Origin: an uncultured Bacilli bacterium
Lineage (GTDB): Bacteria; Bacillota_I; Bacilli_A; RF39; UBA660
Direction of reading: 5' to 3'
Length of the DNA: 64,000 nt
Assembly: GCA_944363595.1 (NCBI GenBank)
Contig: CALVUN010000010.1
Location: 6,852-70,851 of the forward strand
Positions 6,105 to 61,361 of the stretch are shown piece by piece (position 1 is the stretch's first letter; every line of letters starts with the position of its first letter). The notes beneath the pieces were generated by a model. It ran no database searches, was not told the origin of the DNA, and saw only the letters and a list, made by a program, of their open reading frames with translations. A program made the translations under genes and the position numbers.

Positions 6105-6178
6105 GCAAATAAATATCACTTTCCTAAGATAATAATATAGTTTAAAACAAATGTTTCATCACCAAAGCCAACCTAAAT

Positions 6179-6245: not shown

Positions 6246-6887
6246 GTGAAAATATCAGGGCTGTCACTCGTGGGAATTATAACTATCTTATGTATAATTG
6301 CCACGATGACAACGTATAAATTATTATTAGTTCAAGATAAGACATCATACGAAACCATGATAGCAAGCATTGAAACACCTAAAACCAAACAACAAGAAAT
6401 CTCAAATGAAGATGCCACGATGAAAGAAGTTGCTCAAAATACCATTAATAAACTTGATGATATAACTATTACAGAACCAATTGTCTATGACAATATGACT
6501 CTAGATGAATTAGCTAATAAATTAGAAAAATCATTAAATAGTGACTTAAAAGGTTATGGTTATACTTTCGCAGCTTACTCAACTAAATTAGGTATCGACC
6601 CATATTTAGCACTAGGTATCGTTTTAGAAGAAACAGGATGTAAATGGAATTGTAGTTATCTTGTCAAAGAATGTAATAATATCGGGGGGCAAAAAGGAAC
6701 CGGTTGTGGTGCTTATCAAGCATATCCAACCCTAGAAGAAGGAATATATGGCTTTTTAAATAACATATATAATAACTATTATGCATATGGATTAACCACT
6801 GCTGAAGCAATGAATCCCAAATATGCTGAAAACCCCGCTTGGGCATCTAATGTTAATGCTCATATCATAAAAATAAAAAATAACTAA
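6246..6887 (+). CDS. secreted peptidoglycan hydrolase with a glucosaminidase (FlgJ-like) domain; GTG start
   Basis: N-terminal transmembrane/signal segment. The YLALGIVLEETGCKWNCSYLVKECNNIGGQKG region resembles a mannosyl-glycoprotein endo-beta-N-acetylglucosaminidase domain. The GTG start is preceded by an AGAGGTGA ribosome-binding site. Confidence 0.6.
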   Translation: MKISGLSLVGIITILCIIATMTTYKLLLVQDKTSYETMIASIETPKTKQQEISNEDATMKEVAQNTINKLDDITITEPIVYDNMTLDELANKLEKSLNSDLKGYGYTFAAYSTKLGIDPYLALGIVLEETGCKWNCSYLVKECNNIGGQKGTGCGAYQAYPTLEEGIYGFLNNIYNNYYAYGLTTAEAMNPKYAENPAWASNVNAHIIKIKNN

Positions 6888-20147: not shown

Positions 20148-20717
20148 GTGATAGTCTTGTCTGCTTACAAAGAAATAGTAACCAAAGCTGTCATTGGCAA
20201 AGGGAAAAAATACTATAAAAATACCTATACCATAAATACCGAAAATACTCCGACAACTATCTTAGGATGTTGGGTAATTAATCACAAATTCAAAGGAACA
20301 GAAGTAAACAATAAAATAGTTATTACAGGAAGTTTTGATGTAAATTTATGGTATTCATATAATAATGATACCAAAACAACAGTTATAACCAAAACCATTG
20401 ATTATCAAGAAGTAGTATCAGTTTCCCAAAAAGCTAGCACCGATTCTGCCAAAGATATCATAGTAAGAAGTTTAAAACAGCCAAATTGCATCAATGCCAA
20501 AGAAAATGGAAATAGCATTATCATCGAAATAGAAAAAGAATTAGGTATTGAAATTGTCGGTGATACAAAAGTAAAAATAGCAATTGAAGAAGATGAAGAA
20601 CCATGGGATATAATTACTGATGATGAATATACTGATGACATTGCCAAAGAAATTGATGACAATATAAAAACAGATTATCTTAAAGAAGAACTACCAAAAG
20701 AAGACGAAACAAAGTAG
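20148..20717 (+). CDS. cotE: outer spore coat morphogenetic protein CotE (GTG, or TTG at 20157)
   Basis: Collinear with B. subtilis CotE along its length: YKEIVTKAV.GKGKK, ILG.WVINHK, WYSY.NDTKT, QPNC, and an acidic Asp/Glu-rich C-terminus. Confidence 0.85.
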   Translation: MIVLSAYKEIVTKAVIGKGKKYYKNTYTINTENTPTTILGCWVINHKFKGTEVNNKIVITGSFDVNLWYSYNNDTKTTVITKTIDYQEVVSVSQKASTDSAKDIIVRSLKQPNCINAKENGNSIIIEIEKELGIEIVGDTKVKIAIEEDEEPWDIITDDEYTDDIAKEIDDNIKTDYLKEELPKEDETK

Positions 20718-20805
20718 TTCTTTTTTTTATAAATATAAGAAAACATATTGACAAACATATGTATGTAATGATATTATGGATATAACTTATGAAAGAAGTG
20801 ATATC

Positions 20806-21420
20806 ATGATCAAAATAATAAAATATGAACAAAAAAATAACCAATATAAACTAACTTTTGATAAAAAAGAACCCATAACTATTCATGAAGAAGTAATAAT
20901 TAATAACCATCTTTTATATAAAAAAGAAATTGATAACGAGTTGTATAATCAACTAATTATAGAAAACAAATATTATATTCTATATTATAAATGTTTAAAC
21001 TATATAAAAGTAAGATTAAGAAGTATAGAAGAAATGCAAAACTATCTTCAAAAACAAGAAGTAGATAAAAAGACGAGTACAAAAATTATTAACGACTTAA
21101 TAAAAAATAAATTTTTAGATGATGAACGTTTTACCAAAGCCTTTATCAATGATAAATTAAATTTTACAAATATGGGACCATATAAAATAAAAAATGAACT
21201 ACAAAAATTAGGTATTTCCAATCATATTATAGATGAAGAGCTTTCAAATATAGATTTCCAATTAATTCAAAAACGTATTAATAAAATTATAACCAAAAAT
21301 ATAACTACAAATAAAAAATATCATGGTGAAATTTTAAAAAATAAAATATACAAAAATTTAATAAATCAAGGTTATGATCAAAATTCGATTATTGACGAAT
21401 TAAACAAATATGAATTTTAG
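20806..21420 (+). CDS. recX: regulatory protein RecX
   Basis: RecX three-repeat helical architecture: N-terminal ITKI-like MIKIIKYEQKNNQYKLTFD, repeats ending LQKQEVDKKTSTKII and LQKLGISNHII. A TTGACAAACATATGT box lies upstream. Confidence 0.75.
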   Translation: MIKIIKYEQKNNQYKLTFDKKEPITIHEEVIINNHLLYKKEIDNELYNQLIIENKYYILYYKCLNYIKVRLRSIEEMQNYLQKQEVDKKTSTKIINDLIKNKFLDDERFTKAFINDKLNFTNMGPYKIKNELQKLGISNHIIDEELSNIDFQLIQKRINKIITKNITTNKKYHGEILKNKIYKNLINQGYDQNSIIDELNKYEF

Positions 21421-22048: not shown

Positions 22049-22561
22049 ATGATAAATAAAAAGAATTTATGGTTTTTAACATTATTTAGTCTTGTCTTAG
22101 TTTTAAGCGTATATTATGTAACCATGCCAAATGAATTATTAGTAACTACAAATGGAAACAACTTAAAAAATACTAGTACTGATGATGACTTAAGCGAAGA
22201 AGTTTCTGTTGAAGAATCGTCCGTCATTTCTGCTTTAAAAGTCGAAGATGACAATCAAGTTTTAGAAGAAATAAACGAACTAAAAAAGACCCTAACAGGT
22301 CTAGATGTAACAACTGAAGACAAAAATGTTGCCTTTGAAAAACTAAAAACAATTAATCAAAATAATGGTAAAGAAGAGACAATCGAAGCTAAAATAAAAA
22401 AAGAATATAATTTAGAAGCTTTTGTCAAAATAACAGATGATCAAGTTCGAGTTGTCATTGGCAGCGACGAACATTCAACAAAATTAGCTAATGAAATTAT
22501 GAATACAGTTCAAGAAGAATTTGATAGTAAAATGTATATTTCTGTACAATTTCAAGCATAA
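22049..22561 (+). CDS. SpoIIIAH-like sporulation protein (YscJ/FliF-like ring domain)
   Basis: The N-terminus KKNLWFLTLFSLVLVLSVYYV matches SpoIIIAH KKQTVWLLTMLSLVVVLSVYYI. The C-terminus FVKITDDQVRVVIG...ANEIMNTV matches the SpoIIIAH ring domain. There is no spoIIIAA-AG upstream. Confidence 0.65.
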   Translation: MINKKNLWFLTLFSLVLVLSVYYVTMPNELLVTTNGNNLKNTSTDDDLSEEVSVEESSVISALKVEDDNQVLEEINELKKTLTGLDVTTEDKNVAFEKLKTINQNNGKEETIEAKIKKEYNLEAFVKITDDQVRVVIGSDEHSTKLANEIMNTVQEEFDSKMYISVQFQA

Positions 22562-25408: not shown

Positions 25409-25485
25409 TGGCGTCCCAGACAGGATTCGAACCTGTGACCGCACGCTTAGAAGGCGTGTGCTCTATCCAGCTGAGCTACTAGAAC
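25409..25485 (-). tRNA. tRNA-Arg (anticodon UCU), with CCA encoded
   Basis: Clean cloverleaf on the minus strand: GTTCTAG acceptor stem, D-arm GCTC/GAGC, anticodon stem CACGC/GCGTG around loop CTTCTAA, T-arm ACAGG-TTCGAAT-CCTGT, then discriminator G and CCA. A TTGACA-18-TGcTATACT promoter lies at 25507-25536 on the minus strand. Confidence 0.85.
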
Positions 25486-31098: not shown

Positions 31099-31119
31099 AT
31101 ACTTACCAAGGTGACCAAA

Positions 31120-31899
31120 ATGAAAGTATATATTGACCTAGTATTATTTCTAAATCTCATTATTGATCTTTTCCTCCTCATAGCGGTAACAATCATCCTA
31201 AAAAGAAAAACAAATATTAAACGCCTAATAATATCAGCCCTAATAGGAAGTCTAACCACTTTAACTCTTCTCATAAAACTAACTAATACATCTCTTTTCA
31301 TCATAAAGATAATCATATCTATTATTATGGTTATAACCGCTTTTCATTATCAAAACATTCGTTATACCATAAAAAATATAACCTATTTATATATAGTAAG
31401 CATAATTCTAGGAGGAGCCCTCTATCTATTAAATGTCCAATTTTTCTATCACCAAGAAGGACTAACTTTCTATCATGACGGTTTAGGATTAAATATTTTT
31501 GTAATTATCATTTTAAGTCCCATCATTATCTATTTATATTTAAAAAATATCAAAGAATTAAAAAACAACTATTCTAATTACTACTATCTAGACATATACT
31601 TAAAAGACCAATCAAAAATATCCCTAATAGGATTTGTTGATACGGGCAACAATTTAAAAGATCCTTATACCAAAAGTCCCATCATCATTGTAAGCAAAAA
31701 CAAAATCCCCCCCCAAGAAAATTACCTTTTAGTGCCTTTCCAAGTAATCAATCATCATGAATTATTAAAATGTATAAAGCCCCAAAAAATAATTATTGAT
31801 AACCAAATAATCACTACTAAAGCATTAATAGGTATTTCTGATAATAATATCAACATCGATGGTGTTGACTGTATCATTCATCCCGAATTAATAAAATAA
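31120..31899 (+). CDS. spoIIGA: sigma-E processing peptidase SpoIIGA
   Basis: N-terminal transmembrane helices (YIDLVLFLNLIIDLFLL) and the aspartic protease motif FVDTGNNLKDP. It lies directly upstream of sigE. It contains a C8 tract at 31697-31704. Confidence 0.85.
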   Translation: MKVYIDLVLFLNLIIDLFLLIAVTIILKRKTNIKRLIISALIGSLTTLTLLIKLTNTSLFIIKIIISIIMVITAFHYQNIRYTIKNITYLYIVSIILGGALYLLNVQFFYHQEGLTFYHDGLGLNIFVIIILSPIIIYLYLKNIKELKNNYSNYYYLDIYLKDQSKISLIGFVDTGNNLKDPYTKSPIIIVSKNKIPPQENYLLVPFQVINHHELLKCIKPQKIIIDNQIITTKALIGISDNNINIDGVDCIIHPELIK

Positions 31900-31915
31900 A
31901 AGAGAGGAGCCAAAT

Positions 31916-32605
31916 ATGCAAAAAATAATATTATTCATAAAAAAATTATTATCTCGTTTCAATCATCTTTTTTATGTAGGTAGCACTGATAAATTACCTG
32001 AACCATTAAGTAAAGAAGAAGAAATAAAATACGTCGAATTAGCTATGCAAAATGATGAACAAGCCCGCAATAAATTAATTGAACATAATTTAAGACTAGT
32101 CGTATTTTTAGCTAAGAAATATGAAAATACCAATATTGACTTAGAAGATTTAGTATCAATTGGAACAATTGGATTAATAAAAGGTGTAAATACATATAAA
32201 TTAGATAAAAATATTAAACTAGCAACTTATGCATCACGCTGTATCGATAATGAAATTCTCATGTATTTAAGAAAAACCAAAAAAAAGCGAACTGAGATAA
32301 GCTTTGAAGATAGTTTAAGTTTTGATGGTGAAGGTAATGAACTACATTTAGAAGATGTTTTAGGTACAGAACCAGATATAGTAACCAAAGGTTTAGAAGA
32401 AGATTTAGATAAAAAAACACTTTATCAAGAAATAAAAAAATTAGATCAAAGAGATAAAGAAATAATAGAATTAAGATATGGCTTAAACGGAAAAAAAGAG
32501 ATGACCCAAAAAGAAGTTGCCGACTTATTAGGTATCTCCCAATCATACATATCACGTATTGAAAAAAAAGTAATAAAAAAACTAAGTAATATTATCAAAA
32601 TATAA
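31916..32605 (+). CDS. sigE: sporulation sigma factor SigE (pro-sigma-E)
   Basis: Pro-sequence, region 2 (NLRLVVFLAKKYENTNIDLEDLVSIGTIGLIKGVNTY) and region 4 HTH (MTQKEVADLLGISQSYISRIEKK). Confidence 0.9.
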   Translation: MQKIILFIKKLLSRFNHLFYVGSTDKLPEPLSKEEEIKYVELAMQNDEQARNKLIEHNLRLVVFLAKKYENTNIDLEDLVSIGTIGLIKGVNTYKLDKNIKLATYASRCIDNEILMYLRKTKKKRTEISFEDSLSFDGEGNELHLEDVLGTEPDIVTKGLEEDLDKKTLYQEIKKLDQRDKEIIELRYGLNGKKEMTQKEVADLLGISQSYISRIEKKVIKKLSNIIKI

Positions 32606-55024: not shown

Positions 55025-55762
55025 GTGAAATTATTTTTTAAGAAAAAAATAATTGAAACAAGTGCAATATTAACATTGTTTCTTGTTATCATTTATTTAG
55101 TAAGTTTTCTTGACTTAAATGTTTTAACACTTAAAGTAAATAAAGAACATTATGTTGCTTTAGATTTAAACGTTCAAGAGACTGAAGACTTAAAAGTACT
55201 TGTAACAAATCGTCATTATACAAGTCCAAACTTAACGGCTATACCATTAAGTTTAGAAATTGAAGTACCTAAAGAAGAAGAAAACAAAGAGAAAATAGAA
55301 GAGGAAGTTGTAGCAGAAGAAACACCACAAGAATCAGCACCAGCTGTTGTGGAAGAAACTCCACCAGAACCAGAACCAGCACCAGTTACTGATACAACTA
55401 ATTATGATTTAGGCAATCAAATTGTCCAATATGCCAAACAATTCGTGGGAAACCCATATGTCTATGGTGGTACTAGTTTAACCAATGGTGCCGACTGTTC
55501 TGGATTTACAATGAGTGTTTTTGCTCATTTTGGTATTTCCATTGCTAGATCATCATATGACCAAATAAATTCTGGTTATCAAGTATCTATAGCTAATATA
55601 GCTCCAGGTGATCTTGTTCTATCAGGTTATGATGGTGTTATTTCCCATTCATCAATGTATATTGGTAACAATCAAATTATTCATTCATTAAATGAAGATG
55701 TAGGAATTGTTATTACCGATTTGTATATTATGCCTATAATTGCAGTAGTGCGCGTTATTTAA
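55025..55762 (+). CDS. NlpC/P60-family peptidoglycan endopeptidase (GTG start)
   Basis: N-terminal transmembrane anchor, a Glu/Pro-rich linker, and a C-terminal NlpC/P60 domain (YVYGGTSLTNGADCSGFT ... H). Confidence 0.8.
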   Translation: MKLFFKKKIIETSAILTLFLVIIYLVSFLDLNVLTLKVNKEHYVALDLNVQETEDLKVLVTNRHYTSPNLTAIPLSLEIEVPKEEENKEKIEEEVVAEETPQESAPAVVEETPPEPEPAPVTDTTNYDLGNQIVQYAKQFVGNPYVYGGTSLTNGADCSGFTMSVFAHFGISIARSSYDQINSGYQVSIANIAPGDLVLSGYDGVISHSSMYIGNNQIIHSLNEDVGIVITDLYIMPIIAVVRVI

Positions 55763-55895
55763 AATTGTTACAACAGGCGCGTTATTTAAAATTGTTACTA
55801 TAGCTTGCTAAAATAAAATAATTATAGTATACTTTATTAAGAAAGTATCACAAAGCTATAGTAACAATTTTCTTTTTCAAAAGGGGGGAATAAAA

Positions 55896-56396
55896 ATGAA
55901 TAAAGATATACAAACATTAAATAATATCAATAAAATTCAAGATGAACTAATATTTTTATCACAGTTATCTCAAAAAATTCAAGAAGATCATCAACAACAT
56001 ATAGAAATAAAAAGAAAAATTATTAATTCATCAATTCAAGATTTACACGAAAAACTACAAGAAGAAAAAGCCAGTCACTCTCACCAATTACTACTATATT
56101 TAGGTCGCAAAGAAAAAAAACAATATTATATATGCCCAATATGCGAAGAAGTAATTATAAGAAATCAAAAAATAAAAAATAAATATATTATTGATATTTC
56201 ATCATACATAGACAATATAGATGATGAAATGACAAATCATAACATTGTCAAATTAATTATCTCACATGTAAGAAATACCATTCAAAGATACAATAAGTTA
56301 TTTACTAAAGTAATTATTGAAGAAGTATATAAATATTTACAAAACCAAATAGATAATCAAAGCCTAATCATCCGTGCCAAAAAACATCGTAAATAG
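55896..56396 (+). CDS. hypothetical protein
   Basis: 166-aa ORF whose ribosome-binding site contains a G6 run. A single CPICEE motif. No family recognised. Confidence 0.45.
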   Translation: MNKDIQTLNNINKIQDELIFLSQLSQKIQEDHQQHIEIKRKIINSSIQDLHEKLQEEKASHSHQLLLYLGRKEKKQYYICPICEEVIIRNQKIKNKYIIDISSYIDNIDDEMTNHNIVKLIISHVRNTIQRYNKLFTKVIIEEVYKYLQNQIDNQSLIIRAKKHRK

Positions 56397-56425
56397 TTGA
56401 CAACTGTCATAAAATATATTATAAT
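56397..56425 (+). promoter_or_regulatory. consensus sigmaA promoter TTGACA-17-TATAAT driving a T-box leader
   Basis: Perfect -35 and -10 hexamers with 17-nt spacing, immediately after the stop codon at 56394-56396. Confidence 0.6.
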
Positions 56426-56429
56426 TAAC

Positions 56430-56648
56430 ACGTATTTTAAAGCAAATGAAAGAGACGATATAATAAGTTTTCTTAATAGAGAGTTCATGTATGGTGGAAA
56501 TGGACAAGAAAGTATTATATAGATCACTCTGGATGTTCTTATCTGATATTAGGATAAGACGGTAGTAATACCGTTATTAAATTAAGTAATAAGGTAGGAT
56601 GGTACCGCGTCAGAAACGCTCCTAAATAGGAGTGTTTTTTTTCATTTA
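56430..56648 (+). promoter_or_regulatory. T-box riboswitch leader (probable Ile specifier AUC) with intrinsic terminator
   Basis: Stem I elements (GA/K-turn region, AGAGAG box at about 56476). Candidate specifier AUC-A at about 56523. T-box sequence AAGGTAGGATGGTACCGCG at 56591-56609. Terminator ACGCTCCTaaatAGGAGTGT followed by T8 at 56614-56648. Confidence 0.6.
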
Positions 56649-56882
56649 AAATATAAATTTATTTTTTCTCCAAAAAAATATTGACAAACATATGTTTGTG
56701 TGTTATTGTTTTGTCATGGGAAAAGATAATATTTAATGTAAAAAATCAATTCAAAATATTTACAAGAACCATTTTATATAAGCATATAAATAATTTTTTC
56801 AAAACAATCATATAAAATAAAAGATAGTGCTAAGACTTTTTAATAAAAATTTAATAAAACAAAGATACAAAGGAGAAAAGAA

Positions 56883-57722
56883 ATGAATAAAAATATAATT
56901 TCACTTTTAAGTTTTATAGAATTAAATTATCAAAATGCAATAAATAATGTCATTGAACAAAAATTAAGACCTATTATTGAAAAAATAGATAAAGAGTTTT
57001 ATAAAGACAATGTAACTATCAGTAAAATAATTAATTATTATAGTAAAAAATCAATTACTATATGTGTTGTTTTACAAAAAAATGAAAAAAAATATCAAAA
57101 CTATAATTTACAATTAACCAGTAATGGCTTAGCATATCAAGACGATAATCATCGACGAAAAAATAATGACTTAAATAAAGAAAATTATTTTAATAATATA
57201 TATATAGAATTAATAAATAGTTCTAATATACATGTTTATATATCTGGTTATCAAGCAATTATCAATTTAGGTAAAATAAATATTACATATGATTTAATAA
57301 AACAAGAAATTATTCAAGTAAAGCCTAATATTATTTCCCATGATAGTGGTATTAAGCTTTTAAAAGATACCCTTATTATTGATGGTAAAGTAATATATGA
57401 AGAACATTACCAAGAACAAGTATTATCAAAAAAAATATATGAAGCAACTACATCAGATGAAAAAGTTAGGTACAAATTAAATTATAGACATCCTAATGTT
57501 CATCAAATAGAACCTGGTATAGCTAAAATAGAATTAGGAGAAGCTACAGTTATTTATGATAATATTAATAGAAGAATAAAACAAATTATTCCTAATATTG
57601 TTTCAGAAGAAAGTTGTTTTATTGAAATGATAAAAAAATCGATGATAAAAGTTCGTTATTATCATGAAGAAAATGAAGAAAAAATAAATTATCAAGAATA
57701 TAAAAGAAGGAGAGTTAGATAA
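56883..57722 (+). CDS. hypothetical protein, translationally coupled to ileS
   Basis: 279-aa ORF with a good ribosome-binding site. Its stop lies 1 nt before the ileS ATG. No family recognised. Confidence 0.5.
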   Translation: MNKNIISLLSFIELNYQNAINNVIEQKLRPIIEKIDKEFYKDNVTISKIINYYSKKSITICVVLQKNEKKYQNYNLQLTSNGLAYQDDNHRRKNNDLNKENYFNNIYIELINSSNIHVYISGYQAIINLGKINITYDLIKQEIIQVKPNIISHDSGIKLLKDTLIIDGKVIYEEHYQEQVLSKKIYEATTSDEKVRYKLNYRHPNVHQIEPGIAKIELGEATVIYDNINRRIKQIIPNIVSEESCFIEMIKKSMIKVRYYHEENEEKINYQEYKRRRVR

Positions 57723-57723
57723 C

Positions 57724-60432
57724 ATGAATTATAAAGAAACATTATTAATGCCAGAAACAAGTTTTCCTATGCGTGGAAATTTACCTGAAAATGAAAAAAT
57801 TAAAAGAGCAGAATGGGAAAAAATGGATTTATATAATAAAGTAAAAGAAAAGAATAAAGGAAGAAAGCCATTCATTTTACATGATGGTCCGCCATATGCC
57901 AATGGCGAGATTCATATTGGACATGCTATGAATAAAATTTTAAAAGACTTTGTTAACCGCTATAAAATGATGAGTGGATATGATATTACATATATACCTG
58001 GATGGGATACACATGGCTTACCAATTGAACAAGCCGTAACCAATAGCGGTATTGACCGTAAATCAATGAGTAAAAGTGCTTTTCGTGAATTGTGTGATAA
58101 ATATGCTCATGAACAAGTCGCTAAACAAATGGCAGGTTTTAAAACATTAAATGTACTTGCCGATTGGGAACACCCATATTTAACATTAGATAAAGAATTA
58201 GAAGCACGTCAAATTGAAGTATTTGCAGAAATGGCAAAAGCTGGTTTAATTTTTAAAGGCTTAAAACCCGTTTATTGGTCACCATCTAGTGAATCAGCCT
58301 TAGCGGAAGCCGAAATTGAATATAAAGACCGAAAAGATCCATCAATTTTTGTAGCTTTTACTGTTGTTCAAGGTAATGACAAAATCAAAGAAGGCGAAAA
58401 ATTAGTTATTTGGACAACCACACCTTGGACTCTTCCAGGCAATTTAGGAATAGCAGTCGGTGAAAAATTTGAATATGCTAAAGTTAAAGTCAATGATGAA
58501 ATTTATATTGTTGCAAACGATTTAGTTTCTAGTTTAAGTAAAGAATTTGGCTGGGAAAACTATGAAATAAAAGAAGTCGTCGCAGGTACAGATTTTAATA
58601 ATGTTAAATACAAACATGTTTTTATGGATCGCGTTTCACCTGTTGTTATAGGTTACCACGTAACTTTAGATGCAGGTACAGGTTTAGTTCATATTGCCCC
58701 AGGTTATGGTGCTGATGACTTTATTATTGGAAAACAATATAATTTAGGTCTTATAAATGGTGTTAACGACCAAGGTGTTTTAACAGAAGAATCTGGTGAA
58801 TTTGAAGGATTATTTTTTGAAGATGCAAATAAGGCTGTCGTTCAAAAATTAGATGATTTAAAAGTATTATTAAAGCTAAAATTTATTACTCACTCATACC
58901 CTCATGATTGGCGAACTAAAAAACCAATTATCTTTAGAGCAACACCACAATGGTTCTGTAGTATTGAGCCAATAAAAGAAAAAATATTAAATGAAATTGA
59001 AAACAATATTGTTTTCCATACACCATGGGGTAAGAAAAGATTGTACAATATGATTAAGGATCGTGGTGATTGGTGTATTTCAAGACAACGTGTTTGGGGT
59101 GTCCCAATTCCTATCTTCTATAATGAAGATGGAAGTGAAATAATGGATTATGATGTTATGATGCATGTTGCAGAATTATTCCGTAAATATGGATCTAATA
59201 TCTGGTTTGAAAAAGAAGCCAAAGATCTATTACCAGAAGGTTATACCAATGAAGCATCTCCTAATGGTAAATTTACTAAGGAAGAAGATATTATGGATGT
59301 ATGGTTTGATTCAGGATCAACTCATACTGGCGTTCTAATTGCAAGAGGATTAGATTATCCTGCTGATTTATATTTAGAAGGATCAGATCAATATCGTGGC
59401 TGGTTTAACTCCTCATTAATTACAGGAGTGGCCATTTATGGTAAAGCGCCATATAAACAATTAGTATCTCATGGATTTACTTTAGATGGTAATGGAAATA
59501 AAATGTCCAAAAGCTTAGGAAATACTATTGACCCCGCAGATGTTATTCGTCTTCATGGATCAGATATATTAAGATTATGGGTATGTTCTGTTGATTACAC
59601 TGAAGATGTTAAAATAAGTAATGAATTAATTAATCAAGTAAAAGAAAGCTATCGAAAAATAAGAAATACATATCGCTTTATGTTAGGAAATCTTAAAGAT
59701 TTTGATCCAGATAAAGATAGTGTAAATTATGAAAATATGCCATATTATGATAAGTATCTCATGATAAAATTGCAAAAATTTACCAACGAAGTTTTAAAAA
59801 ACTACGAAGAATATACTTTCCAAGAAATATATAAACAAGTAAATAATTTTATTTCATTTACTTTATCAAATTTCTATTTAGATTTCACTAAAGATATTCT
59901 CTATATAGAAAGAAAAAATGCACCAACAAGACGAAGTGTACAAACTGTATTATATAACATAATTAATAATTTAGCTAAATTACTTGCACCAATCTTACCA
60001 TATACAAGTGAAGAAGTGTATAAATTATTGCCTCATCATGAAGAAAGTATACATTTAACAGATATGCCTAAAGTAATAACATATAAAGATGAAGAAGAAA
60101 TAATGGGCTTATTTGAATTATTCTTTGAACTAGAAGAAAAAGTTAATAAAGAACTAGAAAATGCAAGAAATAATAAAGAAATAGGTTCAAGCCTTGAAGC
60201 AGAAGTACATATTAAGCTAGAAGAAAAATATCAAATCGTTAAAGAAAAATTAGGACCATATCTTCATCAATTGTTTATAGTATCAAAAGTTGTATACGAT
60301 GATAAAGCTGATGGTATTCAAGTAATTAAAAGTAATGGACATAAATGTGCTCGTTGTTGGAACTATGTTGATACATTAGAAGACGATATATGTCCAAGAT
60401 GTCACAGTATAATAAATAAACCTATGAATTAA
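57724..60432 (+). CDS. ileS: isoleucyl-tRNA synthetase
   Basis: HIGH motif (PYANGEIHIGHAMN), KMSKS motif (NKMSKSLGN), the CP1 editing domain, and a C-terminal Zn-finger (CARCWNY...CPRCHS). Confidence 0.95.
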   Translation: MNYKETLLMPETSFPMRGNLPENEKIKRAEWEKMDLYNKVKEKNKGRKPFILHDGPPYANGEIHIGHAMNKILKDFVNRYKMMSGYDITYIPGWDTHGLPIEQAVTNSGIDRKSMSKSAFRELCDKYAHEQVAKQMAGFKTLNVLADWEHPYLTLDKELEARQIEVFAEMAKAGLIFKGLKPVYWSPSSESALAEAEIEYKDRKDPSIFVAFTVVQGNDKIKEGEKLVIWTTTPWTLPGNLGIAVGEKFEYAKVKVNDEIYIVANDLVSSLSKEFGWENYEIKEVVAGTDFNNVKYKHVFMDRVSPVVIGYHVTLDAGTGLVHIAPGYGADDFIIGKQYNLGLINGVNDQGVLTEESGEFEGLFFEDANKAVVQKLDDLKVLLKLKFITHSYPHDWRTKKPIIFRATPQWFCSIEPIKEKILNEIENNIVFHTPWGKKRLYNMIKDRGDWCISRQRVWGVPIPIFYNEDGSEIMDYDVMMHVAELFRKYGSNIWFEKEAKDLLPEGYTNEASPNGKFTKEEDIMDVWFDSGSTHTGVLIARGLDYPADLYLEGSDQYRGWFNSSLITGVAIYGKAPYKQLVSHGFTLDGNGNKMSKSLGNTIDPADVIRLHGSDILRLWVCSVDYTEDVKISNELINQVKESYRKIRNTYRFMLGNLKDFDPDKDSVNYENMPYYDKYLMIKLQKFTNEVLKNYEEYTFQEIYKQVNNFISFTLSNFYLDFTKDILYIERKNAPTRRSVQTVLYNIINNLAKLLAPILPYTSEEVYKLLPHHEESIHLTDMPKVITYKDEEEIMGLFELFFELEEKVNKELENARNNKEIGSSLEAEVHIKLEEKYQIVKEKLGPYLHQLFIVSKVVYDDKADGIQVIKSNGHKCARCWNYVDTLEDDICPRCHSIINKPMN

Positions 60433-61361
60433 TTCATAGGTTTTCTCATTCTTTCAAACTTATTTTCTTTATTACAATATCCTAGATATTGATATAAAAA
60501 ATATAATTTTTCTCTATCATTATTAAAAATCAAATTAGCAAGTTCTAAAGCATTATCATCACAACTATTCATAAAATCTTCATTAATAATTTTATAATTA
60601 ATAAAATCATTATCAAAATTATTGCTTTTAGCATAGTTAATTAATTTAACAATAAAATTAACGTTATTTTGCCAAATGAAAGGTTCAAGAGTACCATTTG
60701 GGTATCTAAATTCTATAGTATTATCAAATAAAAACGTATCATATTTCATTTTATTAAAATTAATACCATATGCGCCATTACTAAAAGCTCGTGCCAATTT
60801 TGTAACTAACGAATAATAATCACATGTATCGTCAATCTCCCAAATCATATCTTTTAATATCAATTTCAATTTTTTAGCATTATCACCAATTATACTTCTA
60901 GCATTTCTTCCAGCATATCCCATTTTGTAAATTATATCTTCATACACCAACCAAATTTTTAATAAATTAGTTAAATATTTTGCATTACCCATAAAAATTT
61001 GCGAACCAATATTAATGTGCCCACCAGATAAATCACCACAATAAGCACCTAATTCTTTTAATTTATCACAAACTATTTTTAGTTCTTTCCATGACGTAAC
61101 TTCATCAATTTCATCCATACATATAGGTGAGTTACACTCACCACCATGAATCACACCAGCATGTCCCTGAAAAGGATCGACAGTTTGTTCAAAAACTACT
61201 CTCCATCCTTCATCAATTGGTAATTTAAAAATTTCATCTACTGCTATATCTAATAATAATTTTTCAAATTCAATTTCTAAGCCAAATGTTACATTATTAT
61301 CAAGATGTAATGATTCAAGATAATGTGGTGTAAAAAATTTAACTTCTTTTAATAAATTCAT
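60429..61361 (-). CDS. putative amidoligase / carboxylate-amine ligase (glutamine-synthetase-like fold, GCS2/amidoligase_2-like)
   Basis: FGLEIEFE near the N-terminus, GGHINIG (compare GxHVHVG), and TIEFRYPNGTLE (a conserved Glu...Arg motif) resemble GS-fold amidoligases. Confidence 0.4.
   Translation of the reverse strand: MNLLKEVKFFTPHYLESLHLDNNVTFGLEIEFEKLLLDIAVDEIFKLPIDEGWRVVFEQTVDPFQGHAGVIHGGECNSPICMDEIDEVTSWKELKIVCDKLKELGAYCGDLSGGHINIGSQIFMGNAKYLTNLLKIWLVYEDIIYKMGYAGRNARSIIGDNAKKLKLILKDMIWEIDDTCDYYSLVTKLARAFSNGAYGINFNKMKYDTFLFDNTIEFRYPNGTLEPFIWQNNVNFIVKLINYAKSNNFDNDFINYKIINEDFMNSCDDNALELANLIFNNDREKLYFLYQYLGYCNKENKFERMRKPMN

Follow-up and report, generated by a model that had tools for sequence, protein, structure and literature searches.

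The window analysed here is a 64,000-nt stretch of DNA from an uncultured Bacilli bacterium. The locus of interest lies between positions 56397 and 60432 and comprises ileS, coding for isoleucyl-tRNA synthetase (IleRS), an orphan gene of 279 codons immediately ahead of it, here named ORF279, and a leader RNA of the T-box class upstream of both. We consider it probable, from the sequence and from related loci, that an isoleucine T-box attenuator controls a two-gene operon ORF279-ileS in which ORF279 is captured cargo, with an extra SOS-like promoter, P2, in this genome. The locus is composed of the following features.

56397..56425, + strand: P1, sigma-A-type promoter of the T-box leader, TTGACA-17-TATAAT, 12/12 consensus positions.
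56437..56626, + strand: T-box leader RNA, family RF00230, predicted to be Ile-specific, with Stem III minimal or absent in the covariance-model alignment.
56478-56483, + strand: AGAGAG box, placed by covariance-model alignment.
56523..56526, + strand: specifier codon AUC (Ile) and conserved 3' purine A, in the specifier loop of the covariance-model alignment.
56591..56609, + strand: T-box sequence and antiterminator bulge, AAGGTAGGATGGTACCGCG / AAGGUAGGAUGGUACCGCG, aligned to the T-box consensus with high posterior probability.
56612..56642, + strand: intrinsic terminator of the attenuator, with a 12-bp stem, a 4-nt loop and U8 (terminator scan).
56659..56871 (boundaries approximate), + strand: AT-rich spacer of ~213 nt, 18% GC, a single block that the related locus L001 lacks on alignment.
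56681..56709, + strand: P2, internal promoter-like element, TTGACA-17-TATTGT with extended -10 TGn, 10/12.
56684..56699, no strand: perfect 16-nt palindrome ACAAACATATGTTTGT overlapping the -35 and spacer of P2, a putative LexA-type operator with core CAAAC-N4-GTTTG.
56870..56875, + strand: Shine-Dalgarno sequence of ORF279, AAGGAG, by sequence reading; ends 7 nt ahead of the ATG.
56883..57722, + strand: ORF279, orphan gene of 279 aa and only long ORF of the interval; product basic, soluble, beta-rich, with an internal repeat.
57707..57712, + strand: Shine-Dalgarno sequence of ileS, AAGGAG, within the final codons of ORF279 (KRRRVR*).
57724..60432, + strand: ileS, type-1 isoleucyl-tRNA synthetase, 902 aa, last gene of the operon.

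Transcription of the leader is attributed to P1, whose -35 hexamer adjoins the stop codon of an upstream 166-aa ORF. P1 is conserved in L001, L081 and L162-L166 (L-numbers denote fetched related loci; L001 is a metagenome-assembled genome (MAG) labelled uncultured Bacilli, with an IleRS 93% identical to that of the window). An earlier note, made on the letters of this DNA, had called P1 a textbook TTGACA-17-TATAAT promoter, a description borne out at every position of 56397-56425. It had also claimed a T-box leader and proposed a covariance-model check. The RNA scores 99.1 bits against RF00230, whose gathering threshold is 93, with an E-value of 1.3e-20 and over the full model (1-219). The AGAGAG box, the candidate AUC-A specifier, the T-box motif and the terminator followed by U8 that the note had listed were all recovered in place. 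Across the whole window Rfam recognises this T-box and no other, and the sole further match is a tRNA at 25412-25485.

The specifier assignment agrees with the gene context, AUC followed by a purine fitting isoleucine and ileS sitting downstream. The ATCA columns show zero variation in an alignment of 16 orthologous leaders, in which GGTACC.CG is also invariant. A UGGN bulge is found within AGGAUGGUACCGCG at 56596-56609. As UGGU it would fit an A73 discriminator of the tRNA and pair with the tRNA NCCA end. The terminator hairpin (56612-56639, with a T8 run at 56635-56642) has a folding energy of -14.5 kcal/mol and a z-score of -5.58, none of 200 shuffled sequences being as good. The antiterminator drawn by the covariance-model alignment contains two non-canonical pairs and differs from the minimum free energy fold of the isolated segment, as expected without tRNA. 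No terminator other than that of the attenuator is predicted on the way to ileS. When Rfam was searched permissively over 56380-57000 and 56900-57800, no second T-box or other riboswitch emerged, and in the latter interval no T-box even below threshold; a second T-box inside or after ORF279 was rejected on these searches, the second of which upholds the view of the earlier note that ileS has no separate T-box close by. For 11 related loci the orthologous leader reaches 93-125 bits, and the leader of the window is 89% identical to those of sister species. A genuine isoleucine-sensing T-box, as judged from these sequence traits, precedes ileS; its response to tRNA is predicted.

The identity of ileS is firm, its product scoring 992.9 bits against TIGR00392 (NCBIfam equivalog cut-off 621.4). 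The TAA of ORF279 ends at 57722 and a single base separates it from the ileS ATG at 57724, in agreement with the earlier note. The translational coupling that the note had read from this junction fares less well, the 1-nt gap being only suggestive. Termination-reinitiation from ORF279 to ileS is possible and unnecessary, and is only suggested by the sequence, because a Shine-Dalgarno sequence belonging to ileS itself is preserved in the closing codons of ORF279 and ends 11 nt ahead of the ileS ATG. The C-terminus KRRRVR* encoded over this site is invariant in 13/13 members of the ORF279 family. The sequence AGAAGGAGA underlying these codons is also the ileS Shine-Dalgarno region of the cargo-free locus L004, which indicates that the cargo sits upstream of, and runs into, the ancestral ribosome-binding site (RBS) of ileS. 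On the other side of ileS, an Amidoligase_2-family gene (60429-61361, - strand) converges on it, the stop codons overlapping by 4 nt; paralogues of this family flank ileS on both sides in the lineage of L010, L043 and L061 (L010 3836-4768 and 8088-8957).

The earlier note had reported a 279-aa ORF of unassigned function. ORF279 is found as such at 56883-57722, and the homology search that the note proposed led to no described family: nothing passes threshold in Pfam, NCBIfam, PHROGs, PADLOC or a PDB profile search. A word-indexed search of 5.8 billion clusters returned the query itself only, while exhaustive HMMER over 1.84 billion representatives added one further cluster, P0002, at 52% identity, and a third variant came from L001 when the fetched loci were searched by tblastn. 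Exact-sequence look-up gives 13 distinct family sequences in three 90% clusters, all 276-279 aa long. No homologue beyond these 13 near-relatives was found among about 15 billion proteins, and peptide-pattern scans of GTDB species and of JGI metagenomes yielded no further member; looking up the exact ORF279 product of the window retrieved no recorded contig. Between the three lineages, Nei-Gojobori estimates of the ratio of non-synonymous to synonymous substitution rates (dN/dS) lie at 0.30-0.38, with dS at 0.64-1.0. For ileS, judged on its first 200 codons, the ratio is 0.016 (dS 0.91), ORF279 evolving about 20 times faster than its neighbour by this measure. ORF279 is a real gene under purifying selection, as its dN/dS and the length kept in 13 sequences attest, and it is restricted to one genus and fast-evolving.

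The ORF279 product has an isoelectric point (pI) of 9.0, is hydrophilic, has no transmembrane segment and is rich in I, N, K and Y. GC content at third codon positions (GC3) is 7.9%, the lowest among the 60 ORFs of the window (mean 19%). Residues ~115-165 and ~205-255 form an internal repeat with 38% identity over 52 aa (hhalign probability 91.5%). AlphaFold2 predicts the structure with a mean local confidence (pLDDT) of 39 from two sequences and 51.6 from 13 sequences, only residues ~195-260 reaching 63-88. These low-confidence models suggest a long N-terminal helix followed by beta hairpins, and a Foldseek search of the PDB with such a model returned only noise (TM about 0.1).

ORF279 is present in seven other loci (L001, L081, L162-L166), always between the Ile T-box and ileS and behind the same P1. 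The T-box of L001 scores 100.9 bits and that of L081 99.3 bits, and in all seven ileS begins 1-2 nt after the ORF279 stop codon. In these carriers the RBS of ORF279 comes no more than about 25 nt after the terminator T-run, and the T-box motif is separated from the ORF279 ATG by 70-75 nt, compared with 285 nt in the window. The claim of the earlier note that an Ile riboswitch governs ORF279 together with IleRS is strengthened by this direct adjacency in the seven loci. The Ile T-box controlling ORF279 and ileS is the conserved arrangement of the genus, the control itself being predicted. The AT-rich spacer of about 230 nt that the note had also described is present and can be refined to a block of ~213 nt, unique to the window among the eight ORF279 loci and thus specific to this genome.

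Elsewhere in the window, and across 1 Mb of related loci, the spacer has no copy except for a 27-nt promoter/operator stretch. The spacer has no terminal inverted or direct repeats and matches no Rfam family, the best hit being rimP at 26.5 bits, below threshold. A recognisable remnant of a miniature inverted-repeat transposable element or insertion sequence, or a second riboswitch, was rejected as its origin for lack of copies, repeats or an Rfam family. An insertion in this genome is more likely than a deletion in the sister lineage because the leader lies within about 60-150 nt of the first gene in the loci examined.

Comparison of 80 species-representative genomes with related IleRS puts the interval between T-box and ileS, hereafter the slot, in an evolutionary context. 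The T-box motif lies 57-147 nt ahead of ileS in 44 of the 80 species, all distant Bacilli among them, which answers in the affirmative the question of the earlier note whether the two adjoin in relatives. On this distribution the T-box adjoining ileS is the ancestral state. In 30 species, all belonging to the clade with at least 63% IleRS identity, the motif is found 0.6-3.7 kb upstream of ileS with genes between. The cargo varies. Six loci carry homologous ORFs of ~320 aa, related by N-terminal sequence, that code for a putative Na_Ca_ex (CaCA) antiporter, an assignment made by Pfam scan of L005 alone. Pfam identifies Fic in L057, CYTH in L069 and two mTERF-repeat proteins in L007, whose N-termini are shared by ORFs of L011, and L002 has small ORFs without assigned family. 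An alpha/beta hydrolase, a Mur ligase and Ddl occupy the slot in 18 loci (Pfam). The genes for the hydrolase, the Mur ligase and the D-Ala-D-Ala ligase are tightly packed between the Ile T-box and ileS in L041 (2167-6000), and 17 loci are like it (L026, L030, L032, L033, L035, L038-L040, L045, L047, L049, L053-L056, L058 and L063).

A Rfam leader scan of 14 loci, all but one cargo-bearing, detects a plus-strand T-box upstream of the cargo in 11 and none directly before ileS. The three loci without a T-box at threshold are L005 and L062, which fall below gathering, and L065, which the contig end probably truncates. The ATC-A that is invariant in the 16 aligned leaders identifies a single orthologous Ile leader throughout. 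On a neighbour-joining tree of IleRS, the clade of the window displays CYTH, CaCA, empty, ORF279, Fic and small-ORF states, and the mTERF and hydrolase-Mur-Ddl states are in separate clades. This distribution of slot states implies at least six independent gains or replacements. The earlier note had left open whether the 279-aa gene is inserted cargo or an aminoacylation partner. Cargo is favoured, because the ancestral T-box adjoins ileS (44/80 slots are empty), the slot has been reused by at least six types of unrelated genes, and ORF279 is genus-restricted and fast-evolving; the role of partner is disfavoured. We do not think, on these comparisons, that ORF279 is dedicated to aminoacylation.

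Other traits of the slot deserve mention. The hydrolase-Mur-Ddl clade includes a MAG labelled Candidatus Coprosoma, cell-wall genes being apparently placed behind an Ile riboswitch. ORFs of 76-84 aa found just before an intact ileS in L002 (3693-3935), L003 (2323-2577) and L057 (5620-5850) are N-terminal fragments of IleRS: their best phmmer matches in the PDB are all IleRS (1ffy, 3e-6; 1ile, 1e-4). Their motif FVFYDGPAFANGLP presumably resembles more the type-2 enzyme. The fragments suggest the scar of a past ileS duplication, a decayed second ileS or a replacement at the site. L002 has in addition a second T-box (2324-2571, - strand, 107.9 bits), back to back with the ileS-side T-box and facing the upstream gene. 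In L022 (3365-3908), whose IleRS is 79% identical, there is no T-box motif ahead of ileS and a minus-strand gene lies ~160 nt upstream; its leader may have been lost.

The second promoter-like element with a palindrome that the earlier note had described is located inside the spacer (P2, 56681-56709; palindrome, 56684-56699). Promoter-like 9/12 matches are common in the AT-rich window (30 found for 21 expected), and P2 therefore draws its weight from comparative evidence and not from the consensus match itself. A 27-nt stretch of P2, AAAAAATATTGACAAACATATGTTTGT, has a counterpart of 92.6% identity at window 20740-20766. This counterpart immediately precedes recX (RecX_HTH2, 4.7e-11), whose promoter shares the overlap of -35 and operator as well as the TGn -10. 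The recX promoter element ATATTGACAAACATATGTATGTAATGATAT, with its module ATATTGACAAACATATGTATGT, is perfectly conserved in the sister species loci L167/L168 (~1400-1500), where the flanking intergenic DNA differs. A third species, L169 (~1290-1385), has a symmetric variant of the element, CATAC-AAAT-GTATG, CATACAAATGTATG, and the more distant relative L172/L173 carries AGAACATATGTATA at this place. The recX gene of the window (20806-21420) probably starts at the ATG at 20806 rather than at 20776, since its homologues are 204 aa long.

With up to two mismatches the 16-mer is found at four sites in 1.01 Mb of related loci, all promoter-like: the spacer, recX, and dinB (IMS, 1e-33) and thyA of L010. 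The operator core is positioned between -35 and -10 of dinB in L010/L082. RAAC-N4-GTTY occurs within 80 nt of the start in 18 of 66 distinct metagenome dinB upstream regions. With 0.0026 per 80 nt as background, this is an enrichment of more than 100-fold; the half-sites occur in every mix (AAAC..GTTC 8, AAAC..GTTT 4, GAAC..GTTT 4, GAAC..GTTC 2). The site recurs both in promoters and at DNA-damage genes: P2, recX (window, L167/L168, and as a variant L169) and dinB (L010/L082).

The B. subtilis LexA (Cheo/SOS) box has the consensus CGAACATATGTTCG. The P2 operator resembles the Firmicutes LexA box in its 14-bp dyad with 4-bp spacing, in 12/14 consensus positions and in its overlap with the -35 and spacer; it differs by a symmetric change, the G of each GAAC half-site being A, and it fronts an orphan gene and an aminoacyl-tRNA synthetase instead of known SOS targets. 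We infer that CAAAC-N4-GTTTG is an AT-drifted SOS-type operator of this clade, putatively bound by LexA, because it recurs at recX and dinB and, at dinB, grades into GAAC-N4-GTTC, the motif described for Firmicutes LexA (PMC4951493). P2 is probably a repressible promoter giving T-box-independent transcription. SOS-type boxes, as recognised by sequence, exist across the clade. Near-canonical Cheo boxes are seen in the relatives L042 (~1000), L044 (~892) and L048 (9256); CGAAAATATGTTCG is flanked by -35 and -10 elements in the DNA between era and recO, and CGAACATTTGTTCT precedes the gene of a UvrD-like helicase. In the window, only one other intergenic site matches RAAC-N4-GTTY exactly: AAAACAAATGTTTC at 6145-6158, ~35 nt upstream of, and outside, a promoter-like element TTGACA...TGGTACAAT; an ORF for a 213-aa membrane protein begins at 6246.

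These elements can be assembled in the following scheme. Transcription would start at P1. When tRNA-Ile(GAU) is charged, the terminator at 56612-56642 would form and transcription would stop. Uncharged tRNA-Ile would pair with the AUC specifier and the UGGU bulge, stabilising the antiterminator, and RNA polymerase would read through into the spacer, ORF279 and ileS. Translation of ileS would start from the Shine-Dalgarno sequence that this gene has at the 3' end of ORF279, with some coupling by proximity being possible, and the operon would end where the convergent amidoligase gene overlaps the ileS stop codon. ORF279 would be hitch-hiking cargo, lodged between the leader terminator and the ileS RBS and expressed via the ileS leader. 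P2, if active, would bypass the attenuator, a repressor holding it off until inactivated; were this repressor of the LexA type, ORF279 and ileS would be transcribed upon DNA damage independently of tRNA-Ile charging. We infer that read-through occurs in vivo, that P2 is active, that LexA is the binder and that ORF279 and IleRS are not functionally linked. What is new here is the orphan family at this position, the recurrent capture site in one clade and, in this genome alone, an internal promoter that carries an SOS-like operator. The parts are ordinary, their arrangement is unusual, and no new principle is needed.

Several observations weigh against this reading. The leader exceeds the RF00230 gathering threshold by only 6 bits and lacks Stem III. 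The direction of the spacer indel is unrooted and is read from outgroup habit, the window being sister to all other carriers. Cargo status is compatible with a function linked to Ile or IleRS, and ORF279 is kept under selection beside ileS in at least three species. The P2 site is AAAC-N4-GTTT (CAAACATATGTTTG) and not the canonical GAAC-N4-GTTC dyad, and perfect 16-nt palindromes are not unusual, with 8 in the window for 3.8±1.9 in simulations. Searched with the B. subtilis LexA sequence, neither the 64-kb window nor the fetched loci, which cover little of each genome, yielded a lexA gene.

The half-site, the chance occurrence of such palindromes in the window, the missing lexA and one L010 site that precedes thyA, no classic SOS gene, all speak for another origin of P2: a chance promoter-like sequence in an AT-rich insert, or the operator of some other dimeric regulator. 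We regard this explanation as unlikely, though it deserves serious attention, for the 16-mer occurs only four times in 1.01 Mb and each time in a promoter-like context, the recX copy is perfectly kept or symmetrically changed in sister species, and the dinB motif grades into the canonical dyad. Within the library searched, no paper linked ileS to LexA.

ORF279 could also be a functional partner of IleRS or of tRNA-Ile metabolism, such as a modulator, a chaperone or a trans-editing-like protein, co-regulated and coupled with ileS for stoichiometry. It lies directly upstream of ileS, with a 1-2 nt gap, in 8/8 carrier loci, it is under purifying selection, and its product is basic like many RNA-binding proteins; a precedent is provided by streptococcal "tRNA-ligase related hypothetical" genes behind T-boxes (Wels et al., PMC2494555). 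We give little credit to this possibility. Relatives with 77-80% identical IleRS have no ORF279, or a CaCA antiporter, Fic or CYTH in the slot. ORF279 is confined to one genus, its dN/dS is ~20 times that of IleRS, and it resembles no known domain associated with aminoacyl-tRNA synthetases (aaRS); ileS moreover retains its own ancestral Shine-Dalgarno sequence.

Equally improbable is that the T-box is uncoupled in this genome, with ORF279 and ileS transcribed mainly from P2 and the leader reduced to a relic at which transcription mostly ends. P2 does combine a perfect -35 hexamer with an extended -10 and lies downstream of the terminator, so that its transcripts would escape attenuation, and the ileS of L022 apparently does without a recognisable T-box motif. 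Against this, the identity of the leader to those of sisters (89%), its intact terminator, AUC-A and invariant T-box positions indicate continued selection, P1 is a perfect consensus, and a repressor on the operator would keep P2 off in normal growth. The most elaborate combination, a gene-capture slot that lets new or foreign genes become expressed, with ORF279 wired to IleRS and dual control by T-box and drifted LexA box that links an aaRS operon to the SOS response, is a long shot. That ORF279 is no gene at all, merely a chance frame or decaying remnant in a long ileS 5' untranslated region, is hardly conceivable: the absence of homologues outside the genus and of any domain, the low GC3 and the poor structure prediction (pLDDT 39-52) are outweighed by an 840-nt open frame very unlikely by chance in 20% GC DNA, by its integrity at 276-279 aa in 13 sequences spanning 52% amino-acid identity, by a dN/dS of 0.30-0.38, and by a strong Shine-Dalgarno sequence with ATG and a conserved internal repeat.

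The favoured reading, an Ile attenuator ahead of a captured gene and ileS, fits a well-known background. Nearly all Firmicutes have kept ileS under T-box regulation (PMC2494555). The locus resembles the canonical ileS T-box of B. subtilis and S. aureus in the divIVA gene before and ileS after it, the AUC specifier, the AGAGAG box, the T-box sequence with UGGU bulge, the intrinsic terminator and the predicted control at the level of transcription. It differs in that the first gene is a genus-specific orphan, Stem III is essentially absent, and an extra 213 nt with an internal promoter separate leader and operon. As to genes placed behind T-boxes, Wels et al. 2008 (PMC2494555) count 8% of these leaders ahead of genes whose function is unknown or unrelated, and report that cysS and asnS frequently come second. 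The cysE-cysS and streptococcal "tRNA-ligase related hypothetical" T-box operons are alike in that one leader gates a non-aaRS gene and then the cognate aaRS. The leading gene of cysE-cysS is, however, metabolically tied to the amino acid, whereas ORF279 has no detectable link to Ile and is replaced by unrelated genes in sisters.

The locus would offer a natural example of a lineage-specific orphan that became expressed by settling between the terminator of a riboswitch and an essential gene. Reuse of the slot in 30/80 species by at least six cargo types bears on the birth and fixation of new genes in small, promoter-poor genomes. Annotation of hypothetical genes as "Ile-related" draws on the specifier of the T-box ahead of them, a practice that calls for care, as the first gene may be unrelated cargo. 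The suggested drift of the LexA half-site from GAAC to AAAC in uncultured AT-rich gut Bacilli matters for regulon prediction.

The T-box directly follows divIVA in most relatives. The interval from divIVA to the T-box promoter (window 55025-56396) is variable within the genus: an NlpC/P60 gene and the 166-aa ORF occupy it in the window, while other strains have a 733-735-aa protein (weak N_methyl match) with ORFs of 124 aa and 156 aa, or an ORF of 200 aa (L081 1061-4959, L162 1532-2134, L164 454-2655). The organism belongs to a gut lineage with a small genome of 28% GC, whose relatives are labelled Acholeplasma, Tenericutes or Bacilli MAGs. The window also contains sporulation genes (20148-20717, 22049-22561, 31111-32605), among them those for CotE (2.4e-51) and a SpoIIIAH-like protein, together with ORFs resembling SpoIIGA and sigma-E by sequence reading only.

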